In this document: positions 1 through 13,158 of the stretch, piece by piece | Layout of the letters: the number at the start of each line of letters is the position of its first letter | Numbering within the stretch: position 1 is the stretch's first letter | NCBI RefSeq assembly: GCF_003334335.1 | Contig: NZ_QOWQ01000003.1 | Direction: 5' to 3' (one strand) | DNA from: Escherichia coli | GTDB taxonomy: Bacteria; Pseudomonadota; Gammaproteobacteria; Enterobacterales; Enterobacteriaceae | Length of the DNA: 64,000 bases | Notes under the pieces: model-generated | The model's database searches: none | What the model was told of the DNA's origin: nothing | What the model saw: the letters and a program-made list of their open reading frames with translations, nothing else | Translations under genes and position numbers: made by a program

Positions 1-235
1 ACGCGAGGCATCGTCTTAACGAGGCACCGAGGCGTCGCATTCTTCAGATGGTTCAACCCTTAAGTTAGCGCTTATGGGGTCAGGTCTCCCCGTTCCGCAA
101 GCTGCCGCGATTTTTCCCGCCACTGCTTCACGGCGATATCATCCAGGTAGGCGGGGGCTTTCGGTGGTCTTGCCATGCTTATTTTTCGTCAGATTATTTT
201 TCAAAAAATTCCCGTGCATAAAAATTTGGGGAGGC

Positions 236-285
236 GTTCGGTGCCCGGCGGGGTCGGGTTTGTCCTGAAAACGCCCCCCACCCCG
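236..285. promoter_or_regulatory. GC-rich imperfect inverted repeat, candidate cos/packaging site
   Basis: GGGGAGGCGT ... ACGCCCCCC arms around GCCCGGCGGGGTCGGGTTTG core, flanked by AT-rich DNA, immediately downstream of the HNH gene. Confidence 0.25.
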
Positions 286-298
286 TCATACAGCCTCA

Positions 299-481
299 TC
301 AGCGATTGCGGAAACATTCCATAACCTCGCGGTCACGGTCGGTTAATCGCTTCGCTGTGATGCGTTCTGCGCGTCCTGACGCTTTATCTTTATGCCCTGT
401 TTCCTGTGTCTTCCATGCGTCACGCTGCCTTATAAGTCCACGGATAAGGCGGTTTTGTTCCCGCTCATTCATCAGCGTCAT
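299..481 (-). CDS. Hypothetical small protein (about 60 aa) overlapping the HNH stop
   Basis: ATG at 481-479 overlaps the last HNH codons; C-terminal LTDRDREVMECF stretch looks HTH-like; no convincing RBS. Confidence 0.25.
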   Translation of the reverse strand: MTLMNEREQNRLIRGLIRQRDAWKTQETGHKDKASGRAERITAKRLTDRDREVMECFRNR

Positions 482-905
482 ACATCCAGTTATTGCGGTT
501 AGCGGCCCGTTCTTCCTCTTCACGAAATCCACCTGCGGCACGCTTGCTTTTTGTTGCCGGATCAAGCCACTTCGTTTTCTGGTTATGACACGCCTGGCAC
601 AATGGCTGATGGTTCCATTCGGGCCAGAAGAGAACATCATCACCGCCATTAATCGGGATAATGTGATCCACCACCACGGCGGGCGTATATATCCCCTTCT
701 CAAGGCATCGCACGCATAACGGGTTTTTACTCAGATACATGGCGCGGTATTTTTCCCACTGTCTGGAGTACCCACGCGCGCGGCGGTGTCCTCGTCTGGC
801 ATCCTCTGCACGCCATGCCGCCCGCCTGTGCTCCTCACACTTGCCGGACTTAACGCGCCTGTTACAGCCTGGTTCTGTACATCGTCTTAATGGTTGCCAC
901 GGCAT
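465..905 (-). CDS. HNH endonuclease, phage packaging-associated
   Basis: 146 aa with Cys-rich N-terminus and DHIIP...H...N...CH...CH HNH-type motif; start overlaps connector stop (ATGA). Confidence 0.85.
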   Translation of the reverse strand: MPWQPLRRCTEPGCNRRVKSGKCEEHRRAAWRAEDARRGHRRARGYSRQWEKYRAMYLSKNPLCVRCLEKGIYTPAVVVDHIIPINGGDDVLFWPEWNHQPLCQACHNQKTKWLDPATKSKRAAGGFREEEERAANRNNWMYDADE

Positions 906-1201
906 CAGTACACCCCCACATCACGGTAAGCCGTCCAGAGCGCGCCAATCGTCATGGGTACGCGCGTTTTTGCGTTATCCGCTACCAGCTGGCGATTCTC
1001 GTACAGGTGAGCGATAAACATCATGCAGCCAATCTTTATGGCTGGCGTGAACTCCAGCCCGTCATCAAAGCGCCTGCCTATATGTATCTGGCACGCCTCA
1101 AGCGATGCGGCAATGTATCCGCTGATTAACTGGTCTTCCTCGTCGCCATCGATGCGGCAATGGAGTTTCACTTCTTCCAGGGTGATAAGTTCTTCTGTCA
1201 T
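905..1201 (-). CDS. Head-tail connector protein, gp6-like
   Basis: 98 aa, N-terminal ITLEEVKLHCRIDGDEEDQLI motif typical of gp6-like connector proteins; translationally coupled to neighbours. Confidence 0.8.
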   Translation of the reverse strand: MTEELITLEEVKLHCRIDGDEEDQLISGYIAASLEACQIHIGRRFDDGLEFTPAIKIGCMMFIAHLYENRQLVADNAKTRVPMTIGALWTAYRDVGVY

Positions 1202-1536
1202 TTTTCCGCGCCCTCACGACAAAGAATTTCAAGGCGTGTCCTGGCGGCATCCGGCAGCGGTTGCCCGATGATATTCAGTACACGCCCCGCCAGCGGCCCC
1301 GTACTGACCTTTATCCGGCTGGTGGCGTTGATGTCCTTCCGGTACCGTATCCAGATCCTTACGGTACCAATCGCCAGCTCTGCACCCGATGAAATGGCCT
1401 CCTTGCTGCTGATCATGTTCACGCTTGCCCAGAGTGTGTGACCGTCCTCCCACGTTTCGAGTATTTCGCCGGTTATATCCCTGGTCTGTTTCAGGGTCTG
1501 AATCGTTACCCTGTCACGCAGTCGCCCTATGTTCAT
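1198..1536 (-). CDS. Head closure / head-tail joining protein
   Basis: About 113 aa from ATG at 1536 overlapping portal stop; RVTIQ ... IRYR pattern of head-tail joining family. Confidence 0.7.
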   Translation of the reverse strand: MNIGRLRDRVTIQTLKQTRDITGEILETWEDGHTLWASVNMISSKEAISSGAELAIGTVRIWIRYRKDINATSRIKVSTGPLAGRVLNIIGQPLPDAARTRLEILCREGAEK

Positions 1537-2744
1537 TCCGGTTTTTCTCCCTCGCTGATTTTTACTTCCTGTTTCCATGCCTGGCTGAACTCATCACCAC
1601 CATCACGCGGGGACAGCCCTTCACGTTCGCGGGCTTCGTTCGGGCACATAACGCCGGATTTGATGCCGCGTTCATAGGTGGCAAAGCGTTCGCCAGGTGT
1701 GGCCCGTAACAGGTCCGCGCTGTCAAACTCCACCTGATACCGGATACCAGGTACAGGCGAGGCCACCAGCAGGGCGTTTTTTATCTGCTGCTCAAAGTTC
1801 GCCAGCCACGGGCGCATTGTCATGGTGAGAAATGCGCGGCTTGCCTCGCTGAAATTGCTGTAGGTGCTGTTGCTGTATTCCTGCAGAAAAATCGGCGAGA
1901 CGTTGAACATTCGGGCGATGTCTTCAATGGTGAAGCGACGGGAGGCCAGCCATTCAGCATCCTGATTACTCATGCCCAGCTGCTGATAGCTCATACCCCC
2001 TTCAAGGATGGGCGTTTTTCCGGCGTTTCTGGCCCCTTTGTAGCGTTCCAGTGCGGCTAATGCCTGTTTGCCCTTCACGCCGTCCAGCCATTCGCCTGAC
2101 GTGATAACCCCTGCCGCCATCATGCCATCACGCATCACGCTCGCGCCGTGGCGTTGTTGGGCCAGCCCAAGCCCCAGCGATTCGCGGCAGATGGTTACAG
2201 GTGAGCGCCCCATAAAACCGTCATCCGTGGAGTAACGAAGGTGGAGAACCTCCCACGGTAAATAGTTGCGGGTGTTTCCGGTGTAGGCGTCAGTGATGCA
2301 GTAGCGCCAGTTGTGTTCGCCTGTCTGCTCCACGTTCACCGACTGCGGCGGGTAAGGATGTAAAGCCACCGGAAAACCATCACGCCCCCACTGAATCACC
2401 GCATAAGCATTACCGTTTAACAGGCAGTGGCGGATCATCATTCGCTTAAACTGGTAGGGAGTCTGCCACGCGTTCGGGCGCTCGTTGAGGATGTGATCGA
2501 CCGGATGAGAATCAAGCCACTCGCGGGCCTCCTTCCCCTTCTCATTGCGTACCAGGTACAGGTAACACGGCATGGTAGCCACCGCCTCAGAGATGACCGT
2601 CACGGCGTTCATGACGGCGGGCAGTGATTCCGCTGTCCCCGATGATACGTACTCACCCGCCCCCGTGTTCGATGTGCCAGCCAGCGCCATAAATTCATCA
2701 AGCGTCATGCTGCGCTGCTCTTTTTTTCTTCTGAAAAGCCACAT
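1533..2744 (-). CDS. Phage portal protein, HK97 family
   Basis: 403 aa with portal-family conserved core; sits between protease and head-closure genes. Confidence 0.9.
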   Translation of the reverse strand: MWLFRRKKEQRSMTLDEFMALAGTSNTGAGEYVSSGTAESLPAVMNAVTVISEAVATMPCYLYLVRNEKGKEAREWLDSHPVDHILNERPNAWQTPYQFKRMMIRHCLLNGNAYAVIQWGRDGFPVALHPYPPQSVNVEQTGEHNWRYCITDAYTGNTRNYLPWEVLHLRYSTDDGFMGRSPVTICRESLGLGLAQQRHGASVMRDGMMAAGVITSGEWLDGVKGKQALAALERYKGARNAGKTPILEGGMSYQQLGMSNQDAEWLASRRFTIEDIARMFNVSPIFLQEYSNSTYSNFSEASRAFLTMTMRPWLANFEQQIKNALLVASPVPGIRYQVEFDSADLLRATPGERFATYERGIKSGVMCPNEAREREGLSPRDGGDEFSQAWKQEVKISEGEKPE

Positions 2745-2745
2745 A

Positions 2746-3303
2746 TCACACCCCCGCTAAATCCACCCACCAGCGGCGATTATCCGCACGCGGCATTTTT
2801 TCGGGGTGCTGCTCATACAGGGAACGGCGGGCCAGCTCCACGCCGGAATCGGGGTAAGCCGGTACCGATGTAACGGTAATTTCGTACAGTTCCGCCACCA
2901 GCACGGTGCGCACGCATGGATCTGTTGTGGTATCCCATACATCCTTACGGGAGCGAAAGCCAAAGCTCATCCCCGAGATGTCCCCACGCTTAACCAGTTC
3001 GATAACGTCGCGCCCTGTACTGGTATCCGGTGGGGTCAGTTCAAAGCGTAACCCTGTTTCGTCCTCTTCCAGTTTCAGCGTGCCGGAACGGGTACGCCCC
3101 AGCAACATGCTGTGGTCATGCTCATACAGGCCGCGAACGTCATTACCCGCCGCAAGCCATTCAGTAAACGCTCCCCGCTGGAATTTTTCGTAAAACTCCC
3201 CCCATAGCAGCTCTGAAAGCTTATCCCAGCGAACAACGTAGCCTGTAAGCGTGTTGCTGGCGCTGGTGGTGATTTCCGATGACCGGATTTCCATACTCTT
3301 CAT
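2746..3303 (-). CDS. Prohead (head maturation) protease, HK97 family
   Basis: About 185 aa; ORF track gives 2746..3318 but ATG at 3303 has the better RBS (GGGTGA); HK97 protease-like sequence. Confidence 0.85.
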   Translation of the reverse strand: MKSMEIRSSEITTSASNTLTGYVVRWDKLSELLWGEFYEKFQRGAFTEWLAAGNDVRGLYEHDHSMLLGRTRSGTLKLEEDETGLRFELTPPDTSTGRDVIELVKRGDISGMSFGFRSRKDVWDTTTDPCVRTVLVAELYEITVTSVPAYPDSGVELARRSLYEQHPEKMPRADNRRWWVDLAGV

Positions 3304-3318
3304 AATTTTTTCACCCAT

Positions 3319-3357: not shown

Positions 3358-4515
3358 TTAATCGTCGTCCTGTGGCAGTTCCAGAATCTTGATCGCGTTC
3401 GAATCCACCACGCCACCGCCTAAATATTTCTGCGTGAAAATTTTGATGAAGCCCGGCTCTGTGAGGTTGTCCGGTCTGGTGCGAACACCTGTTTCGTGAT
3501 CAACAATGTAGTAACCGCGTTTGAAGTCACCCAGGGCAATAACGTTATCAGGCATAAACTCCAGATATTCGACCGGAAGGCCCAGCAACGTATCAGGATC
3601 ACCCGCCTGTAAACGGTCACGCCAGATGTAATCACCGTTCGCGTTCTTCACCTTCTGGAGTTTTGCCGCCGTCGTGGAGTTAACCACCCAGACCGCGTTT
3701 TTGCGGTATTTTTTACGTAATGCAAATTTCAGGTCGATCAGCGGGTCCGCAGATGTCCACGCCAGAGATTCGGAAGGTTTAATTACCTGCAACGTACCAA
3801 AATCACGCTCTTTGTCGTTCTTCTCTGCACGGGGTACGGATAAAAAGCCTTTTGCTTTTTTGTCACCGTCGCCCACAACCAGATCGCTTTCTTCGGTTTC
3901 CGTGAAGGTGTCGCCAATCTCGCCCGTCAGCCATGAAAGGATGTCCACATCGGAAAAATCCACGATTTCCTGTGTGGTGCGCGGGTACGCATAGACCGGA
4001 TACAGCTTAATGCTCACCTCGTTAATCTGCGGGGTGCTGGTCTGTTCGCGTGTCTTACCCTCTTCACCGTGGTTAACGGTCGCACCGCCAGCGGAAACAA
4101 GCTGCTTAAACTCGTTGCTGCTGATTTTCTTCACGGTACAGATGCGGCGCATGGTGGATTCATCCGTCAGCATTCGCATGATTTCGGTGTTCAGTTCGGG
4201 GATAACGGTATAACCACCATCAGCGGGAACGCCTGTACTTAATGCGCGGGTTTCACCTGTCAGGATGTAGTTGCGGAGTTCTGCCGGGTCAGTGGTCTGG
4301 CTGCTTTTACCTGGCTTGCTGCGCTCTTCGTCTGCAATGGCTTCAAGGCGGGAAATGTCTTTATCGAGGGATTCAGCTTTAGCGCGTAATTCGTCAAATG
4401 TTGCGCCCTCAGCATCGTTAAGACTGCGGTTTTCTTTTTCCGCGTTCTCCAGCATGTCGCGCATCTGATTTTTAATGGCGGTTTTCTGCTGGCGTAATTC
4501 GATTATTCTCGGCAT
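3358..4515 (-). CDS. Major capsid protein, HK97 fold, with N-terminal coiled-coil delta domain
   Basis: 385 aa; charged coiled-coil N-terminus then HK97-type capsid body; adjacent to prohead protease. Confidence 0.9.
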   Translation of the reverse strand: MPRIIELRQQKTAIKNQMRDMLENAEKENRSLNDAEGATFDELRAKAESLDKDISRLEAIADEERSKPGKSSQTTDPAELRNYILTGETRALSTGVPADGGYTVIPELNTEIMRMLTDESTMRRICTVKKISSNEFKQLVSAGGATVNHGEEGKTREQTSTPQINEVSIKLYPVYAYPRTTQEIVDFSDVDILSWLTGEIGDTFTETEESDLVVGDGDKKAKGFLSVPRAEKNDKERDFGTLQVIKPSESLAWTSADPLIDLKFALRKKYRKNAVWVVNSTTAAKLQKVKNANGDYIWRDRLQAGDPDTLLGLPVEYLEFMPDNVIALGDFKRGYYIVDHETGVRTRPDNLTEPGFIKIFTQKYLGGGVVDSNAIKILELPQDDD

Positions 4516-4552: not shown

Positions 4553-4729
4553 GCGGCAAAAACTCAACCGTTTTTCATAAGGAAATCAGCAATCGCACCG
4601 ATCGTTTTCCCGCCTGGTAATGAATATTGGCGAGAACATTAACAGGCGGAAAAGTGGCCCCAGCGTCCTGGCACCACGGGCGAGAATAATCATGATTCAG
4701 TTCGGGTAAAATATGCCGATCCTGTCAGT

Positions 4730-5439: not shown

Positions 5440-5850
5440 TCAGAACGGAATATCATCACCGTAGGGGTCATCGTCTCCCGCTGGTGGCTGATTACCCTGT
5501 GTGCCTGTGGTTTTGCGTCTGTTCCCGCCAGGACGTGCCGCACGGGCACTGATTACGCTGTCTGCAATAACCTGATACCCCTGTCGTGTTTCCCCGTTCT
5601 GTCCGGTCCACTGGCTTACCTGCATCGTGCCGGATACGCTGGCAACATCGCCTTTTTGATGTTTAGCCAGGAAATCGGCCTGTTTGCCAAATGCGATAAC
5701 CGATAACCATAACGTCGCCTGTCCGTCATGTGCTTGGCTGCATGGCAACGATACCGCCATACGCGCCAGAGTCATCGGTGTGCCCTTGCTGCTCTGTTTT
5801 ACCAGCGGGTCGTCCACCAGGCGCCCGTAAGCTGCAATTTGTGCTGTCAT
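5440..5850 (-). CDS. ssb: Single-stranded DNA-binding protein
   Basis: 136 aa; OB-fold region aligns with E. coli SSB; Gly/Gln-rich linker and acidic C-terminal tip ending DDIPF. Confidence 0.85.
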   Translation of the reverse strand: MTAQIAAYGRLVDDPLVKQSSKGTPMTLARMAVSLPCSQAHDGQATLWLSVIAFGKQADFLAKHQKGDVASVSGTMQVSQWTGQNGETRQGYQVIADSVISARAARPGGNRRKTTGTQGNQPPAGDDDPYGDDIPF

Positions 5851-6413: not shown

Positions 6414-6620
6414 TTGCCCACCTCTACCCACTTTTTTCGCCCACTTTTTACGTTTTCCCACTTCGTCCAACGTGGGAAATTTGGGATTTATATCATCTTG
6501 TTTCATAGGTATTTTTTTAGTGCCCACTTTTTGGGATATATACACGTGGGAAAGTGGGTAATTTTGTTAAAATTACGTTAAATCGCCCACCTTTCCCACT
6601 TTTAATGCCCACTTTTTACA
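6414..6620. repeat. Candidate replication origin: iteron array around an AT-rich spacer
   Basis: At least 10 copies of (G/T)CCCAC(T)n / GTGGGAAA in both orientations flanking an AT-rich segment (about 6478-6518), directly 3' of the replication protein gene. Confidence 0.6.
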
Positions 6621-8013
6621 GTGGTCCTACATCATCACCGTCAATGTAGATCACGTCGTCTTTTTCCAGTTTGGCTAACCATCGTTTAAGGTGTTTTGTG
6701 TCATACCCCAGCTTTTTCATATCGTCACGTAACAGCGGGATCGTGCACTTGTCGCCGTGCTGTGTGCGTGAACGTATGCACCCCCATAGCGCGGTATGGT
6801 TTTCCGTCTTGTTGCCTGCCTCCTCGATGCGCTCCAGTTCAACGGGAGGGCGCGGCTTATCCACCACCACCAGCGACGTGATTAACTCCCCGTCAGCGTC
6901 GGTAAAAAGCTCCACCACCCGCAAATCATAGGCAGCCTCTTTGAGTTCCTCCGCGTCCTTCATTTTGGTGCATGAGATAACCAGCGCTTCGCTTCCTGCG
7001 TCCTCCCTGCGTATCCGGTATTCAGCATCCAGCGAAGCACGAAATGCACTGGAACCGCGCGCGCCTTTCGTCTCATCCTTGCCGGAATGGTGAACCACCA
7101 GCACCGTGGCCCCTGTGCGCCGTTTAAGCTCGTCACACCCACGGATAAACGCCCCCATATCACGGGAATCATTTTCATCATTGCCACCAAAGCAACGCGC
7201 CAGAGTATCAAGAATAATCATGCGTACAGGTTTACCCGTTTCCCGCTCCACCTGACGGGCAGCGATAACCAGTTCATCAACATCAAGCGGGACAGCCGGA
7301 AAAACTGGACGGTTTACCAGATACAGATTTTTCACCTGCTCACCGTGCACAACCTCCCAGGCTTTTACACGACGCGGAACGCCGATACCGCCTTCACCAA
7401 CCACATAGAGAACAGCGCCATGCGCCACCCTGCGGCCTCCCCACTGGCGGCCCGTGGAAACGTGACACGCCCACGAACCCGCAAGGAATGATTTATAGGA
7501 ACCGCTTGCCCCGTATATGCTGCATAGCGACGATGCCGGAATAATCCCCTTTACCACGTAATCTAATTGCGTGTCGTATCCGGCAGATCCAACGCTCATC
7601 GGTAGCGTGGTTTTTCGCTGGTGGTGTTCTTCCCCTGGCTTTTTCCCCCGCTCCCGTTCCAGATATTCGCGCCAGTTCTCCCGCTTCTGGCTGTGTATCC
7701 CTTCGGGGTAATAATTCGCATCAGTTACGCCCGCCGCCGCCAGCTTGTGCGCAATGGCATTAATATTTGATGGCCTGATGTGGCCTGCCTTGTACAGCCG
7801 GACACAATAGCGCCCCTCGTCGATGATTCTCAGGTCTGCCAGTTCATCCAGTTGATCATCAGCCAGCACAATGGGAGGCACATTATCGCCAGCCAGTCGC
7901 CCGTCCTGTTCCTGCCACTGTTTCGCATGTGCCCACGCATCACTACCCGCAAAAATGATGACTTCGGTCATCTTGTCGTAAGGCTGTTTTTTTAAGTTCG
8001 GTGCGCTTTTCAT
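6616..8013 (-). CDS. Satellite replication protein, RecA/DnaB-like P-loop ATPase with N-terminal extension
   Basis: 465 aa; Walker A GASGSYKS and ILDTLARCFGG...VHHSGK helicase-like motifs; followed by the iteron array. Confidence 0.85.
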   Translation of the reverse strand: MKSAPNLKKQPYDKMTEVIIFAGSDAWAHAKQWQEQDGRLAGDNVPPIVLADDQLDELADLRIIDEGRYCVRLYKAGHIRPSNINAIAHKLAAAGVTDANYYPEGIHSQKRENWREYLERERGKKPGEEHHQRKTTLPMSVGSAGYDTQLDYVVKGIIPASSLCSIYGASGSYKSFLAGSWACHVSTGRQWGGRRVAHGAVLYVVGEGGIGVPRRVKAWEVVHGEQVKNLYLVNRPVFPAVPLDVDELVIAARQVERETGKPVRMIILDTLARCFGGNDENDSRDMGAFIRGCDELKRRTGATVLVVHHSGKDETKGARGSSAFRASLDAEYRIRREDAGSEALVISCTKMKDAEELKEAAYDLRVVELFTDADGELITSLVVVDKPRPPVELERIEEAGNKTENHTALWGCIRSRTQHGDKCTIPLLRDDMKKLGYDTKHLKRWLAKLEKDDVIYIDGDDVGPL

Positions 8014-8996: not shown

Positions 8997-9216
8997 GTAC
9001 CCCTCCGCATTTTTTTTCGTTAGAAATAAGCGTTCTTCTTTCCTGTTCATCGATCAGGAATACGCAGACCTCACCGCTAAGGCGTTTAAGTAAGCCGATG
9101 ATTGCCCCTGATTCGCTGTCGGTCATCATGCCTGGGTAATCCTCTGCCAGTGCGCAAATAACTTCGATTTGGTGGGCGCGTTCTGCTGCCTGTTGTAGTG
9201 TGATTTCCTGGCTCAT
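8986..9216 (-). CDS. Hypothetical protein, 76 aa
   Basis: ATG at 9216 overlapping stop of upstream ORF (ATGA). Confidence 0.5.
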   Translation of the reverse strand: MSQEITLQQAAERAHQIEVICALAEDYPGMMTDSESGAIIGLLKRLSGEVCVFLIDEQERRTLISNEKKCGGVHVQ

Positions 9217-9413
9217 AAGCCTACCCCCTGACGAATACGGGCAGCGAATACCATCACGCAGCCAGCCGGGGATTGCAGGCGTGCTTCCTGTTCGCTGGTG
9301 GCCTCAATGGTAATCACGCGCGGTTGTGCAGTGCTCAGGGCGATAAAACGCCAAATGTATTTATTCAGGTTGTGCGAGTCCCGCCCTTGCGGGTGTGTGG
9401 TATGATTTCTCAT
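9213..9413 (-). CDS. Hypothetical protein, 66 aa, first gene of leftward operon
   Basis: ATG at 9413 with GAGGTAG RBS; this is the only plausible part of the spurious 340-aa ORF 9213..10235. Confidence 0.45.
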   Translation of the reverse strand: MRNHTTHPQGRDSHNLNKYIWRFIALSTAQPRVITIEATSEQEARLQSPAGCVMVFAARIRQGVGL

Positions 9414-9508
9414 AGCTACCTCGATACTCTCGTTATCGTTGGTGGTTAGAAGCCCGGTTAGTGTTAGCGCACTGCCGGGTTTCGTCGTTTCTGCACCTTG
9501 CGCCAACA

Positions 9509-9566
9509 AGGTGTTGAACACCAATTTAAACCCAGGTGTTAAACACGTCAAGTGTTGAACACTTAT
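9509..9566. promoter_or_regulatory. Three palindromic operators in divergent promoter region
   Basis: GGTGTTGAACACC, GGTGTTAAACAC and AGTGTTGAACACT; last one contains TTGAAC -35 candidate with CATACT -10 about 17 bp downstream for the RHH gene. Confidence 0.5.
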
Positions 9567-9612
9567 TTTTTTTCCTGCATACTGCATTTGTTTTTTATGA
9601 GGGGTACACCAC

Positions 9613-9792
9613 ATGGCGACAAAAGCAGTAAACGCAAAATCACAAACCGTTGCGGCAAGGGTTCCGCATGAAGTTATGAACAATGTTGAGGCGGTAAAAA
9701 TGCCTGGCGAAAGTACGGGGCAATTTGTTACTGCAGCATTAAAACGAGAAGTTGAATATCGCCAGCGGCGCAAGGCCAAAGAACCAGAGTAA
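9613..9792 (+). CDS. Ribbon-helix-helix DNA-binding protein, 59 aa, candidate satellite repressor
   Basis: Not in ORF track (below 60 aa); ATG with GAGGGG RBS; AARVPHEV beta-strand then helices, typical Arc/CopG-like pattern. Confidence 0.55.
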   Translation: MATKAVNAKSQTVAARVPHEVMNNVEAVKMPGESTGQFVTAALKREVEYRQRRKAKEPE

Positions 9793-9834
9793 TCACCATC
9801 AGCGCCGTGGTGTAAGGTATTACGGCGCATTGCT

Positions 9835-10023
9835 ATGCAGGACAACACAATGACCGATAAAGAATTGACCAAAACATTATCACCGGCACGGAAAAGACGG
9901 CGCAGAAAGATAGAGCATGAATCAGAAAGATTCGCGCCATGTGCTTTTGCCCTTGAGCAATTCCTTAAAGAGTACAGGGAAAAGCGCTCATTGCAGGTAT
10001 GGCAACGAACTGAACCAGACTGA
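9835..10023 (+). CDS. Hypothetical small basic protein, 62 aa
   Basis: Lies between the RHH gene and a plus-strand terminator in the same transcription unit; weak RBS. Confidence 0.35.
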   Translation: MQDNTMTDKELTKTLSPARKRRRRKIEHESERFAPCAFALEQFLKEYREKRSLQVWQRTEPD

Positions 10024-10116
10024 TAGCATTGCCCACCAGCCTGATAGCGACTATCATTGCCGTTCTTATGTTTGGGATCACACACACAAACGGCGCAGCG
10101 GGTTATCTGTTCAGAA

Positions 10117-10148
10117 AGGCGGCTCCATTTCGGGGCCGCTTTTTTTAT
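10117..10148 (+). terminator. Rho-independent terminator of the RHH operon
   Basis: GCGGC...GCCGC hairpin followed by TTTTTTTT. Confidence 0.65.
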
Positions 10149-10292
10149 ACCTGAAAAACCCCAATTTTGTTGTTTTTCAGTTTCACCAGGGCGAACGAAT
10201 CCCCGCCCACGTTCTGGCGTATATTCAATCTTCATGGTTATAGCTCTGTGTTCAGATGATTGATGTGTGGCGGCTGCGTGCCGCCAGCGTGA

Positions 10293-10481
10293 TTAATGAA
10301 CTGCCTTGCAGCTATCCTTCCAGGCCAGAACCTCGGATAAAGACCAGCCAACGGAACGACCGCCAAGTTTACGACGTGATGGGAATTGTCCGGCCTTTTC
10401 CAGGCGGTAGCGACACGTACGGCTAAGGCCGGTTAGTTTTTCGCATTCTTTTTCACGTATAAACCGATCAGTGCTTAACAC
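10293..10481 (-). CDS. alpA: AlpA-family transcriptional regulator/excisionase
   Basis: GTG start at 10481 with strong RBS (AAGGGGGG); ORF track extends to a TTG at 10562; EKLTGLSRTCRYRLEKAGQFP HTH typical of AlpA. Confidence 0.75.
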   Translation of the reverse strand: MLSTDRFIREKECEKLTGLSRTCRYRLEKAGQFPSRRKLGGRSVGWSLSEVLAWKDSCKAVH

Positions 10482-10846: not shown

Positions 10847-12064
10847 TTATTTTCTTCTGGCTACGGGTAGCGTGGTTACGTTTTCATGTGTTCCCGCCAG
10901 TATCCCTAACCGCTCCGTCCACATATCCAGCGCATTGCGTTTAGCATCCAGATAACGGGAATGATTATAAACTCGCTGCATTCCTGGCATCTGGTGGCCT
11001 GTAAGCTGCTCCACGACATGCGGATCAACGCCTAAATCGTTCAGCATGGTTGTAAAGGTGCGCCGGATGTCATGCAGTGACCAGTGAGGATGATTAAGCC
11101 TCCTGTGCGCTAATCTTCCATACTGCGATACGCTGGCCTCCTGTTTCACTTCCCCCAGCAATAAGCCCGTGTGCCTGTTCTGCTCCACCAGCTGCGTGAC
11201 GAACGGCAGGATCGCTTCCGGTATGGGCCGGAATATTGCGACCTTCGTTTTGCTGTGCTCCTTCGGAACGGTCCATAGCATTTCCGTAAAATCCCACTCC
11301 CCGATCTCCGATAACCTCAGTTCTACCGTTCTGGCTCCGAAGACAATCAGGAGGCGGATTAACGCGACGTAGTAAGGGGAGAATATTTTTTTGTCCAGTG
11401 CCTGCAATAATTCGCCAAGTTCTTTGTTACTTAAGACACGTTCGCTTATATCCGGTTTTTTCCCAACGTCCGCCACGTTCAGATCGTCCAGAACGTTGCT
11501 GATTGCATAGCGCCGCCTACGGCAGAACTTAAGCGCCTGTTTGCACGCCTGTAGCACGAATCCGGCAGTAACAGGCGTTCGCTTTGCCACCTGGTCAAAA
11601 CAGGCCAGCCAGTGCCGTAGCTCGCATTTATCCAGCGGCATAGCACCAATCTGCTGTATTACGTGATTATTAAGTCGCCTTTTCAGGGCGATATAATCCA
11701 CGCGGTTTTCCTTTACGTAATACTCAAGCCAGTAGGTGAGCGCATCGCCAACCGTTACGGGCTTTAACGCTTCCTGTACGGTGTAATTCATCTCATGACG
11801 TGGATTTTTCCCCTCAGCCAGCCATGTGCGACACTGTGCGGCTTTTTCCCTGGCTGCTTTCAGGCTCAGATCAGGATAACTTCCCAGCTTAATGCGTTCG
11901 GGTCGTGTCTCCCTTCCCGTTCCGGCCCTGTATGTGAAATACCAGGTCAATTTCCCTGATGTTAAATATTTCACGCTCAGGTTTCCGCCATCACTATAAA
12001 ACGTGTTTTTCTCCGCTGGCTTACCATGAAGTTTCCTTAGCAAGGTATCGCTCAGTTTGTTCAT
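10847..12064 (-). CDS. int: Tyrosine integrase, P4-like
   Basis: About 405 aa from ATG at 12064 (ORF track starts at a GTG at 12076); P4-type N-terminal arm-binding region and C-terminal catalytic region with HDIRRTF and trailing Tyr; next to insertion junction. Confidence 0.9.
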   Translation of the reverse strand: MNKLSDTLLRKLHGKPAEKNTFYSDGGNLSVKYLTSGKLTWYFTYRAGTGRETRPERIKLGSYPDLSLKAAREKAAQCRTWLAEGKNPRHEMNYTVQEALKPVTVGDALTYWLEYYVKENRVDYIALKRRLNNHVIQQIGAMPLDKCELRHWLACFDQVAKRTPVTAGFVLQACKQALKFCRRRRYAISNVLDDLNVADVGKKPDISERVLSNKELGELLQALDKKIFSPYYVALIRLLIVFGARTVELRLSEIGEWDFTEMLWTVPKEHSKTKVAIFRPIPEAILPFVTQLVEQNRHTGLLLGEVKQEASVSQYGRLAHRRLNHPHWSLHDIRRTFTTMLNDLGVDPHVVEQLTGHQMPGMQRVYNHSRYLDAKRNALDMWTERLGILAGTHENVTTLPVARRK

Positions 12065-12100
12065 TGCTCTGCTCACGTTTTACCCCCTCTTTACGAAAAA

Positions 12101-12123
12101 GTGACTACACCAGTGACTACACC
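12101..12123. repeat. Tandem direct repeat (A)GTGACTACACC x2 between int and insertion junction
   Basis: Two adjacent copies seen directly in sequence; candidate integrase arm-type site or promoter element. Confidence 0.35.
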
Positions 12124-12252
12124 GATCGTTGCACAAAGGGCTACAACGTGAAACAAGCTGGAACAAGGAAAATCACAAATCTGTTGATAATCAAAAACAT
12201 AATGCACAGCCTGAAACATTATGAAACAGCAAAAAACACTAAATGATAAAAT

Positions 12253-13158
12253 GCTGTTATTCTTAACCCGCTGGTGCAACACATGGTCCGCTGGCGTGTG
12301 CCGCGTGTACTGGCGGTGTCGATTTTGATGACCATCATCGTGATGGCGATGGTGTTGCTATTAGCTTATCTGGGTTCCGCGCTCAACGAGTTGACGCGGA
12401 CGTTACCGCAATATCGCAACTCTATTATGACGCCGCTGCAAGCGCTTGAAGCGTTGTTGCAACGCGTAGGGATTGACGTCTCAGTTGACCAGCTGGCGCA
12501 TTATATTGATCCGAACGCGGCGATGACGTTGCTCACCAACTTATTGACGCAGTTATCTAATGCCATGTCATCAATATTTTTATTGCTGCTGACGGTGCTG
12601 TTTATGCTGCTCGAAGTGCCACAATTGCCCGGAAAATTTCAGCAAATGATGGCGCGTCCGGTTGAAGGGATGGCGGCGATTCAACGTGCGATTGACAGTG
12701 TTTCTCATTATCTGGTGCTGAAAACAGCCATCAGCATCATCACCGGCCTGGTCGCCTGGGCGATGCTCGCCGCACTCGATGTTCGCTTCGCTTTTGTCTG
12801 GGGATTGCTGGCCTTTGCGCTTAATTACATCCCGAATATTGGTTCAGTCCTCGCGGCAATCCCCCCTATCGCTCAGGTACTGGTGTTTAATGGCTTCTAC
12901 GAAGCGTTGCTGGTGCTGGCGGGATATCTGCTGATTAATCTGGTCTTCGGCAATATTCTGGAGCCGCGTATCATGGGGCGTGGGCTGGGGCTTTCCACAT
13001 TGGTGGTATTTTTGTCGTTGATTTTTTGGGGATGGTTGTTAGGACCGGTGGGTATGCTGCTTTCCGTGCCGTTGACAATTATTGTCAAAATTGCGCTTGA
13101 ACAAACAGCGGGAGGTCAAAGCATCGCCGTTCTGTTAAGCGATCTCAATAAAGAGTGA
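12253..13158 (+). pseudogene. tqsA: tqsA (AI-2 exporter) 3' fragment, 5' end displaced by the satellite
   Basis: Protein matches TqsA from about residue 50 onward; in-frame TAA immediately upstream at the junction; only GTG/ATG internal starts remain. Confidence 0.8.

Follow-up and report, generated by a model that had tools for sequence, protein, structure and literature searches.

Genes and features at the left edge of the window

We examined a 64,000-nt stretch of an Escherichia coli contig (NZ_QOWQ01000003.1 of assembly GCF_003334335.1; hereafter the window, numbered from its first base), at the left edge of which the small-terminase gene terS of a capsid-forming phage-inducible chromosomal island (cf-PICI), a phage satellite, runs on the minus strand into the end of an insertion sequence (IS). 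The account below centers on this interruption and on a conserved non-coding element of 91 nt upstream of terS, which is a candidate for the cos site of the satellite. The segment is organized as follows:

1-75, plus strand: right end of IS186/IS421 (IS4-family); its transposase gene lies further left, outside the window
54-75: terminal 22-nt inverted repeat (IR) of the IS, ending ...CAACCCTTAAGTTAGCGCTTAT
76-91: insertion target GGGGTCAGGTCTCCCC (G4-N8-C4) within terS, abutting the IS end
72-176, minus strand: truncated terS, 34 codons; native codons 1-33 plus 2 nt at 76-176, the rest completed by the IS end
177-193, minus strand: leader separating the conserved element from the terS start codon, itself not conserved (mean pairwise identity 41%)
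194-284, minus strand: conserved non-coding element of 91 nt, putative cf-PICI cos, from a 26-species alignment
284-274, minus strand: G-tract GGGGTGGGGGG of the element
270-258, minus strand: conserved block TTTTCAGGACAAA of the element
~257-241, minus strand: variable spacer of the element
242-228, minus strand: C-tract ACCGAACGCCTCCCC, predicted cleavage region
227-194, minus strand: AAATTTTTATGCACGGGAATTTTTTGAAAAATAA, putative TerS-binding G + A-tract block
299-481, minus strand: small open reading frame (ORF) of 60 aa between HNH and the putative cos (phrog_3173, E 7.5e-37)
465-905, minus strand: HNH endonuclease of the packaging module (phrog_144, E 8.6e-45; PF01844 on homologues of identical length)

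The order along the minus strand is therefore HNH, small ORF, G-rich tract, C-rich tract, AT-rich tract and terS, with a non-coding stretch of 122 nt (177-298) between the small ORF and terS. A prior reading of the locus, made from the letters and translated ORFs alone (hereafter the sequence-only reading), had described an AT-rich tract followed by a GC-rich one; both are present (GC 0.35-0.37 at 161-240 and 0.63-0.67 at 221-300), but on the minus strand it is the GC-rich tract that comes first. Its gene calls were reproduced, namely the 34-codon minus-strand ORF at 72-176 with the translation it quoted, the 60-codon ORF at 299-481 and HNH at 465-905. The profile searches that it had proposed for the 34-aa peptide and the 299-481 ORF were run and returned phrog_83 (E 2.9e-6) and phrog_3173 (at the E-value listed above), respectively. 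NCBIfam gave nothing useful on either the small ORF or the HNH protein. The small ORF is annotated as 'hypothetical protein' in relatives and is absent from the Pasteurellaceae and Xenorhabdus relatives.

On sequence grounds, the 34-codon ORF is the true N-terminus of a P27-family small terminase, as had been proposed. Beyond the phrog_83 match, the peptide agrees at every position with the first 34 of the 118 TerS residues in intact relatives, 33 of its codons being native and the last, for Pro, rebuilt by the IS. The uninterrupted TerS allele scores 60.1 bits against TIGR01558 (cutoff 45.6) and matches phrog_83 with an E-value of 2.6e-39. The sequence-only reading had left it between a degenerate terS and a coincidental resemblance. 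The latter could draw on the fact that NCBIfam has no match for the 34-aa stub alone; it is refuted by the DNA at 76-220, which is 100% identical to genes annotated 'phage terminase small subunit P27 family' in many genomes, and by the peptide itself, which forms the first 34 residues of a TIGR01558 protein and matches phrog_83. We thus give coincidence practically no credence.

The IS186/IS421 junction in terS

The 22 nt at 54-75 are the perfect reverse complement of the left IR of the IS, ATAAGCGCTAACTTAAGGGTTG. Across 5,426 complete E. coli genomes, window 1-80 has 100% identical copies in 2142, on plasmids too, with a median of 3 and a maximum of 22 copies per genome. At one such locus (L002), the multicopy match comprises the last 75 nt of an element and abuts a gene annotated 'IS4-like element IS421 family transposase'. 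Full IS421 copies, of which five were fetched, are 1337 bp long, and the transposase gene is present in all of them.

A megablast search of window 1-1500 against the same complete genomes recovered hundreds of near-identical loci (up to 99.8%), and every one of the alignments begins at base 76. A three-way alignment places the switch from IS to terS exactly at 75/76, to the right of which window 76-520 equals the intact relatives save for one base. On the minus strand the junction reads ...GAC CTG ACC CC|A TAA GCG C..., where the IS end provides the third base of Pro34 and a TAA stop (72-75). What ends the terS frame is therefore the right end of IS186/IS421 at window 1-75, and the observation that the ORF is not continued in any frame holds, these 75 nt being DNA unrelated to terS. 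An IS186/IS421 insertion has split terS 101 nt into the 357-nt gene. The suspicion of a degenerate terS was thus right in that the gene is disrupted, but it has been interrupted by an IS rather than eroded.

The target preference of the IS was derived from the five fetched IS421 copies. GGGG directly follows this IS end in all five, and four are flanked by 11-13-bp duplications of the form GGGG-N3-6-CCC. The published IS186 target consensus is reportedly G>=4 N3-6 C>=4, i.e., at least four G and at least four C around the spacer, duplicated upon insertion; SaiSree and co-workers are said to have described, in 2001, IS186 insertion hot spots such as the lon promoter. The site in terS has in common with such hot spots the same terminal repeat and a target consisting of a G-run, a short spacer and a C-run, whereas its spacer, at 8 nt, is longer than the 3-6 nt of the four sampled duplications. 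The corresponding target duplication, GGGGTCAGGTCTCCC(C), would be expected at the left IS junction beyond the window. An IS421 copy on the plasmid pCP53-92k (L174) has unlike G...C flanks (GGGGATCTCTCCC versus GGGGTACAGCCCCC) and is without a target duplication, which suggests recombination between two IS copies on the plasmid.

Two other accounts of the window's left edge were considered. A group II intron was first suspected because some multicopy matches lay under a 'reverse transcriptase' annotation; window 71-75 also ends in ...TTAT, resembling an intron 3' end. It was rejected, as the IS inverted repeats and target duplications are clear instead, and at L002 the IS421 copy had itself landed within an intron reverse-transcriptase gene, which explains the annotation. 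The second account takes the interruption of terS for an artefact of assembly, in which sequences were mis-joined at a repeat. It could appeal to the window beginning inside the repeat, with a single junction visible, and to the IS-terS junction not being found in the 5426 complete E. coli genomes. Yet the junction is precise to the base, with the last base of the IR abutting a canonical GGGG...CCCC target as in other copies of the IS, and contigs of five independent draft assemblies stop within 3 nt of this position, as short-read assemblies do at a repeat insertion. We hence regard an artefact as very improbable, and treat the break as a genuine IS186/IS421 insertion. In the five drafts (L176-L180), the contigs end <=3 nt from the IS position in terS (equivalent to window 73-76), two of them extending 2-3 nt into native terS, and the islands they carry are 92-98.7% identical to the window. 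These contig ends could stem from recurrent repeat insertions at the GGGG-N8-CCCC site, or from related strains.

In relatives, terL overlaps terS by 17 nt, and the IS is likely polar on terL. Were the insertion simple, the remainder of terS and terL would lie beyond the IS, left of base 1, pushed ~1.3 kb further left by it. No other pieces of terS or terL were found anywhere in the 64-kb window.

The conserved element upstream of terS as a putative cos

We collected terS loci, with a single genome representing each species, and aligned the sequences upstream of terS for 26 species, which belong to the Enterobacterales, the Aeromonadales (Aeromonas), the Pasteurellales (Pasteurellaceae) and the Orbales (Gilliamella). 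The element is collinear across them, with the consensus gGGtgGGGG....ttt.A.gAcAAa (~14 variable nt) gG.ACC.cCCgCc.CCTcaAATTTTTAcGCacgg...TTTTTTtgAaAatA, corresponding to window 284-194 on the minus strand. Mean pairwise identity in this alignment is 71% over the element and 81% over its C-tract and AT block; in the same genomes it is 36% over the ~45 columns upstream, 41% in the downstream leader and 68% in the terS coding DNA. The distance from the element to the terS start is variable, with ~150 nt extra in Rodentibacter. Among the 5,426 complete E. coli genomes the element occurs in 534, always beside terS and never on plasmids, and a search for phages sharing the cos DNA matched only satellite-derived records. 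The terS copies of 'Pasteurellaceae bacterium Macca' and of Lonepinella are without the conserved element within 210 nt of terS and have short AAATTT-centered hairpin repeats instead.

The sequence-only reading had seen in the GC-rich tract an imperfect palindrome resembling the cosN cores of lambda and HK97. The palindrome, with 10-nt arms at 229-238 and 270-279 that are 90% complementary across a 31-nt spacer, is weak: 600 nt contain 11 inverted pairs of about this quality, itself included, and the fold of the strand is no better than that of shuffled sequence (z = 0.11). Moreover, species with GGGTAGGGG at the left show no compensating change at the right. The G-tract and the C-tract are thus conserved as sequences and not as a pair, and it is cross-species conservation, not symmetry, that exceeds chance in the GC-rich tract. 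Neither a terminator-like hairpin nor a minus-strand sigma-70-like promoter was found here. As for the cosN cores, the tract has no detectable homology to that of lambda or HK97; what it has is a layout collinear with that of HK97.

The element sits between HNH (465-905) and the terS start (176), which is where an HK97-type cos is located. In HK97 itself, the ends are 10-nt 3' overhangs, cleavage is stimulated by the HNH protein gp74, and the minimal TerS site spans positions 15-29 after the cut, being read via a guanine and the adjacent A-tract (Chechik et al. 2024, PMC11331095). The mapped ends of the HK97 genome join as ...GGGGGGGGGATCAAATCTTCAAAACCTTTGCCCCAAATGACCGCCGCCAAA|GTTTGAATTTAACGCTAACCCGATTTTTTTAG...ATG(terS). 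When aligned with MAFFT, HK97 is collinear with the cf-PICI element, G-tract on G-tract and ACCGCC on ACCGCC; the HK97 end falls within the C-tract, near the C-tract/AAATTT border, and ACGC...GATTTTTT comes to lie on ACGCACGGTGATTTTTTT. The two systems share the order HNH, cos and terS, a G-tract ~45 nt upstream, a GC-rich cut region and, ~15-30 nt downstream, an ACGC...GATTTTTTT block, where the HK97 TerS binds. They differ in that HK97 is without the small ORF and its TerS is not a TIGR01558 member.

Carried over from HK97, this layout offers a tentative scheme of packaging. TerS would bind the conserved G + A-tract block ATGCACGGGAATTTTTT (~203-219), and cleavage by TerL together with the HNH protein would follow 15-25 bp upstream of it, within the C-tract (~225-240), giving cohesive ends; packaging would then run towards terS. 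As the TerS proteins are unrelated, the analogy of the TerS sites may be coincidental. In broad terms the cf-PICI would work, or have worked, like HK97-type HNH-dependent cos packaging, with a distinct cos sequence of its own.

Two assemblies from phage DNA are broken at the equivalent place. The first, LR881103.1 ('Escherichia phage vB_KppS-Ant', 16.5 kb), is the cf-PICI of Klebsiella pneumoniae DSM 30104 (KpCIDSM30104). It was obtained from phage-lysate DNA with a Nextera XT library and is >99% identical to a region of the host genome; the paper on vB_KppS-Ant describes a filamentous ssDNA prophage. Its gene set (capsid, protease, portal, HNH, terS, terL and integrase) is that of a capsid-forming PICI; it also has, downstream of terL, a gene of 2.3 kb with a tape-measure-protein annotation and no counterpart in the E. 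coli islands. The sequence stops at ...GGTTTTCAGGAC (TTTTCAGGAC), and its other end lies 22 nt ahead of terS. The chromosome of K. pneumoniae ATCC 13883, the same strain, has 69 extra nt between the two record ends, GAACACGAGGGCGCCAGGCACCACCCGCCCCCTCAAATTTTTTCGCACGGTGATTTTTTTGAAAATAAA, which are homologous to about window 261-193 and centered on the C-tract; the putative cut region in that chromosome (NZ_KN046818.1, ~3,123,700-3,123,900) contains ...CACCACCCGCCCCCTCAAATTTT.... Since tagmentation captures the final few tens of bases of a linear molecule poorly, a linear genome with cos ends would assemble with ~35 nt missing per end; a loss of this size at either end would place the cut centrally on the C-tract/AAATTT border. 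In the second record, PQ569648.1, the same kind of satellite runs from terS codon 2 as far as the end of the record, which falls shortly ahead of the small-ORF stop codon, and is thus also broken in the intergenic region between the small ORF and terS. This record ('Klebsiella phage P12620-1', 106.5 kb) looks like a chimeric assembly: in the segment 86000-106503 the cf-PICI is fused at terS codon 2 to unrelated DNA, with the junction at about position 4640 of that segment.

He et al. report, without a sequence of the ends, that the DNA of KpCIDSM30104 re-anneals via cohesive cos ends. That island is a homologous cf-PICI with a TerS 84% identical to the present one and the conserved element between small ORF and terS; it represents a different lineage, in which the DNA around cos is ~80% identical, the extra 2.3-kb gene follows terL and terS is intact. 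A full-text literature search for CGGCGGGGGC, a supposed staphylococcal cos overhang, gave unrelated papers only.

Taken with the conservation and the position beside HNH and terS, the breaks in these assemblies make it likely that the element at 194-284 is the cf-PICI cos site. The reasoning from HNH next to cos and terS in the sequence-only reading thus holds up, and the tract that it had flagged very probably is, or lies in, cos. The position of the cut is a more tentative matter: we place it at window ~225-240 with somewhat less than even confidence. A different function for 194-284 would be control of terS-terL transcription or translation, as a promoter, attenuator or operator, with cos elsewhere in the island. 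In its favor, the element immediately precedes terS and contains both AT-rich T-runs and the hexamer TTGAAA, and conservation by itself names no function. Nonetheless, there is neither a sigma-70-like promoter nor an intrinsic terminator on the coding strand, RNA structure is not significant (z = 0.11, as above), the distance to the terS start is not kept, as the ~150 nt extra in Rodentibacter attest, the ends of the two phage-derived assemblies of the relative flank the element, and the layout is that of the mapped HK97 cos. We consider it rather unlikely that control is the main role of the element, and retain cos as the preferred one.

The host island and its mobility

To the right of HNH, the window carries the following:

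905-1201, minus strand: head-tail adaptor (joint profile matches of the adaptor/head closure pair: TIGR01560, 91.4 bits; TIGR01563, 53.9 bits; phrog_40; phrog_25)
1198-1536/1578, minus strand: head closure protein (matches listed jointly with the adaptor)
1533-2744, minus strand: portal (phrog_12, E 1e-116)
2746-3318, minus strand: HK97-type prohead protease (phrog_80, E 8e-67)
3358-4515, minus strand: major capsid protein (phrog_10, E 5e-88)
5440-5850, minus strand: single-strand binding protein, SSB (phrog_44)
6616-8013, minus strand: primase/helicase (phrog_2850/906)
9213-10235, minus strand: repressor-like protein (phrog_6196, transcriptional repressor, over the last 90 residues only)
10293-10481, minus strand: AlpA-like excisionase/regulator (phrog_2790, E 2.5e-17)
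10847-12076, minus strand: integrase (phrog_1, E 7e-72)
12274-13158: 3' part of tqsA, where the island ends, adjoining pntB/pntA

These genes make up the set typical of a cf-PICI. The capsid module has a major capsid protein, protease, portal, adaptor and connector, with proteins of full length compared with intact relatives, and the integrase, the AlpA-type regulator and the replication module are all present. In the packaging module, HNH is intact and TerS is reduced to the 34-codon stub; terL is expected beyond the IS, as in the intact relatives L001 and L169. Intact relatives have the layout major capsid, HK97-type protease, portal, head closure, head-tail connector, HNH, small ORF, terS, terL and a small gene, preceded by PerC, SSB, primase/helicase, regulators, the AlpA-like protein and the integrase. 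The packaging genes thus follow one another on the minus strand as capsid, protease, portal, connectors, HNH, small ORF, cos, terS and terL. In the relative at the same site (L169), the island is 15.2 kb long, within the ~10-18 kb expected of a cf-PICI, and splits tqsA.

The sequence-only reading had assumed a phage, and the HK97-type capsid, protease and portal, the HNH protein and the P27 TerS are indeed all phage-like, as would befit the terminal part of an HK97-like prophage whose terminase had decayed. The element is instead a cf-PICI satellite. No tail or lysis genes were found between 76 and the tqsA junction (~12.2 kb), the leftmost 2.7 kb of the island lying outside the window; the intact relatives, at ~15 kb, are likewise without them and bounded by the two halves of tqsA. 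Moreover, the element is of the EcCIEDL933 type, and the phage records that share its cos-terS DNA are all satellites. The prophage explanation accordingly has a very slim chance of being correct.

EcCIEDL933, of 15.4 kb, is the prototype of the proteobacterial cf-PICIs, whose published definition and gene order fit the genes seen here (Alqurainy et al., preprint 10.1101/2022.09.08.507074). The present island matches EcCIEDL933 in int, the alpA-like gene, replication, capsid, protease, portal, connectors, hnh, terS and terL, and in having no tail or lysis genes; EDL933 carries terS at 97.5% nucleotide identity. It differs in that here terS is split by IS186/IS421 and the site is tqsA, whereas the O157 relative that we fetched (L001) adjoins phoQ. 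For EcCIEDL933, induction by a helper phage and transfer by phage tails were shown experimentally (10.1101/2022.09.08.507074). Overall, we are strongly inclined to read window 76 to ~12,150 as an EcCIEDL933-type cf-PICI integrated in tqsA, with terS split by the IS and 194-284 as its probable cos.

Several points weigh against this reading or parts of it. As to the insertion, terS is uninterrupted across the site in 534 of the 534 complete E. coli genomes that carry it, and the disruption is therefore unusual among finished genomes; further, the left IS junction, the target duplication, the remainder of terS and terL lie left of the window. As to cos, the DNA similarity to the HK97 site is not significant (best blastn-short E ~0.1-2), and the TerS of HK97 and that of the cf-PICI have no sequence similarity. 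The two phage-derived assemblies bracket the site only to ~70-135 nt and come from one Klebsiella satellite lineage, and mapped ends of packaged cf-PICI DNA were not found in the accessible literature. Finally, conservation just ahead of terS might also reflect a part in the control of transcription or translation, and the two roles are not mutually exclusive.

In EcCIEDL933, mutants of the packaging module each abolish transfer, save for one hypothetical gene whose loss reduces it severely. Given that all its packaging genes are needed, and that terS and terL overlap, we infer by analogy that the present copy is no longer capable of packaging itself, barring a supply of TerS and TerL in trans. 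As the island otherwise looks intact, the insertion is probably recent. What had been an ambiguous 'degenerate terminase' thereby becomes a precise event, in which a single IS186/IS421 insertion would have disabled the packaging operon of an otherwise intact satellite, and illustrates a way in which satellite islands come to be fixed in the chromosome. Such an insertion is an ordinary form of decay for a mobile element, and the island is of a known kind; the 91-nt cos candidate shared by four orders is a useful by-product and does not amount to a new kind of system.

In the cf-PICI literature, as far as it was accessible, the cos sequence is not delineated and the 'hypothetical gene 1792' is not identified. 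The present analysis narrows the cf-PICI cos to a candidate element of 91 nt with a predicted cut region and TerS-binding block. Delineating cos would help explain how the satellites package their own DNA alone, and it bears on the near-identical islands found across genera. The core of the element (81% identity) is more conserved than the coding DNA (68%) of terS, whose product should recognize it. One may speculate, though we hold it to be doubtful, that the element is the near-universal cos of gammaproteobacterial cf-PICIs. Were that the case, cf-PICIs of different genera could use one another's packaging machinery, a copy without functional terS, like the present one, would remain mobilizable in trans by any co-resident or incoming cf-PICI, and the motif would be a sequence tag for finding both cf-PICIs and orphan cos carriers that parasitize them.

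Three minor observations concern the island and its relatives. At the position of the 340-aa ORF (9213-10235), an intact relative has several small genes, including Icd-like cell-division inhibitors; the ORF may thus be an artefact of mechanical ORF calling, or a fusion. A 33-nt imperfect direct repeat, TGACTACACCAGTGACTACACCG(T/A)TCG(G/T)TGCAC, occurs close to each end of the intact island (2103-2135 and 17103-17135 in L169) and, on the integrase side, at window 12102-12134; it may be att-related or represent integrase arm sites. Lastly, some genomes have many terS copies, with four to five in several Xenorhabdus species and seven in 'Pasteurellaceae bacterium Macca', and presumably hold many cf-PICIs.

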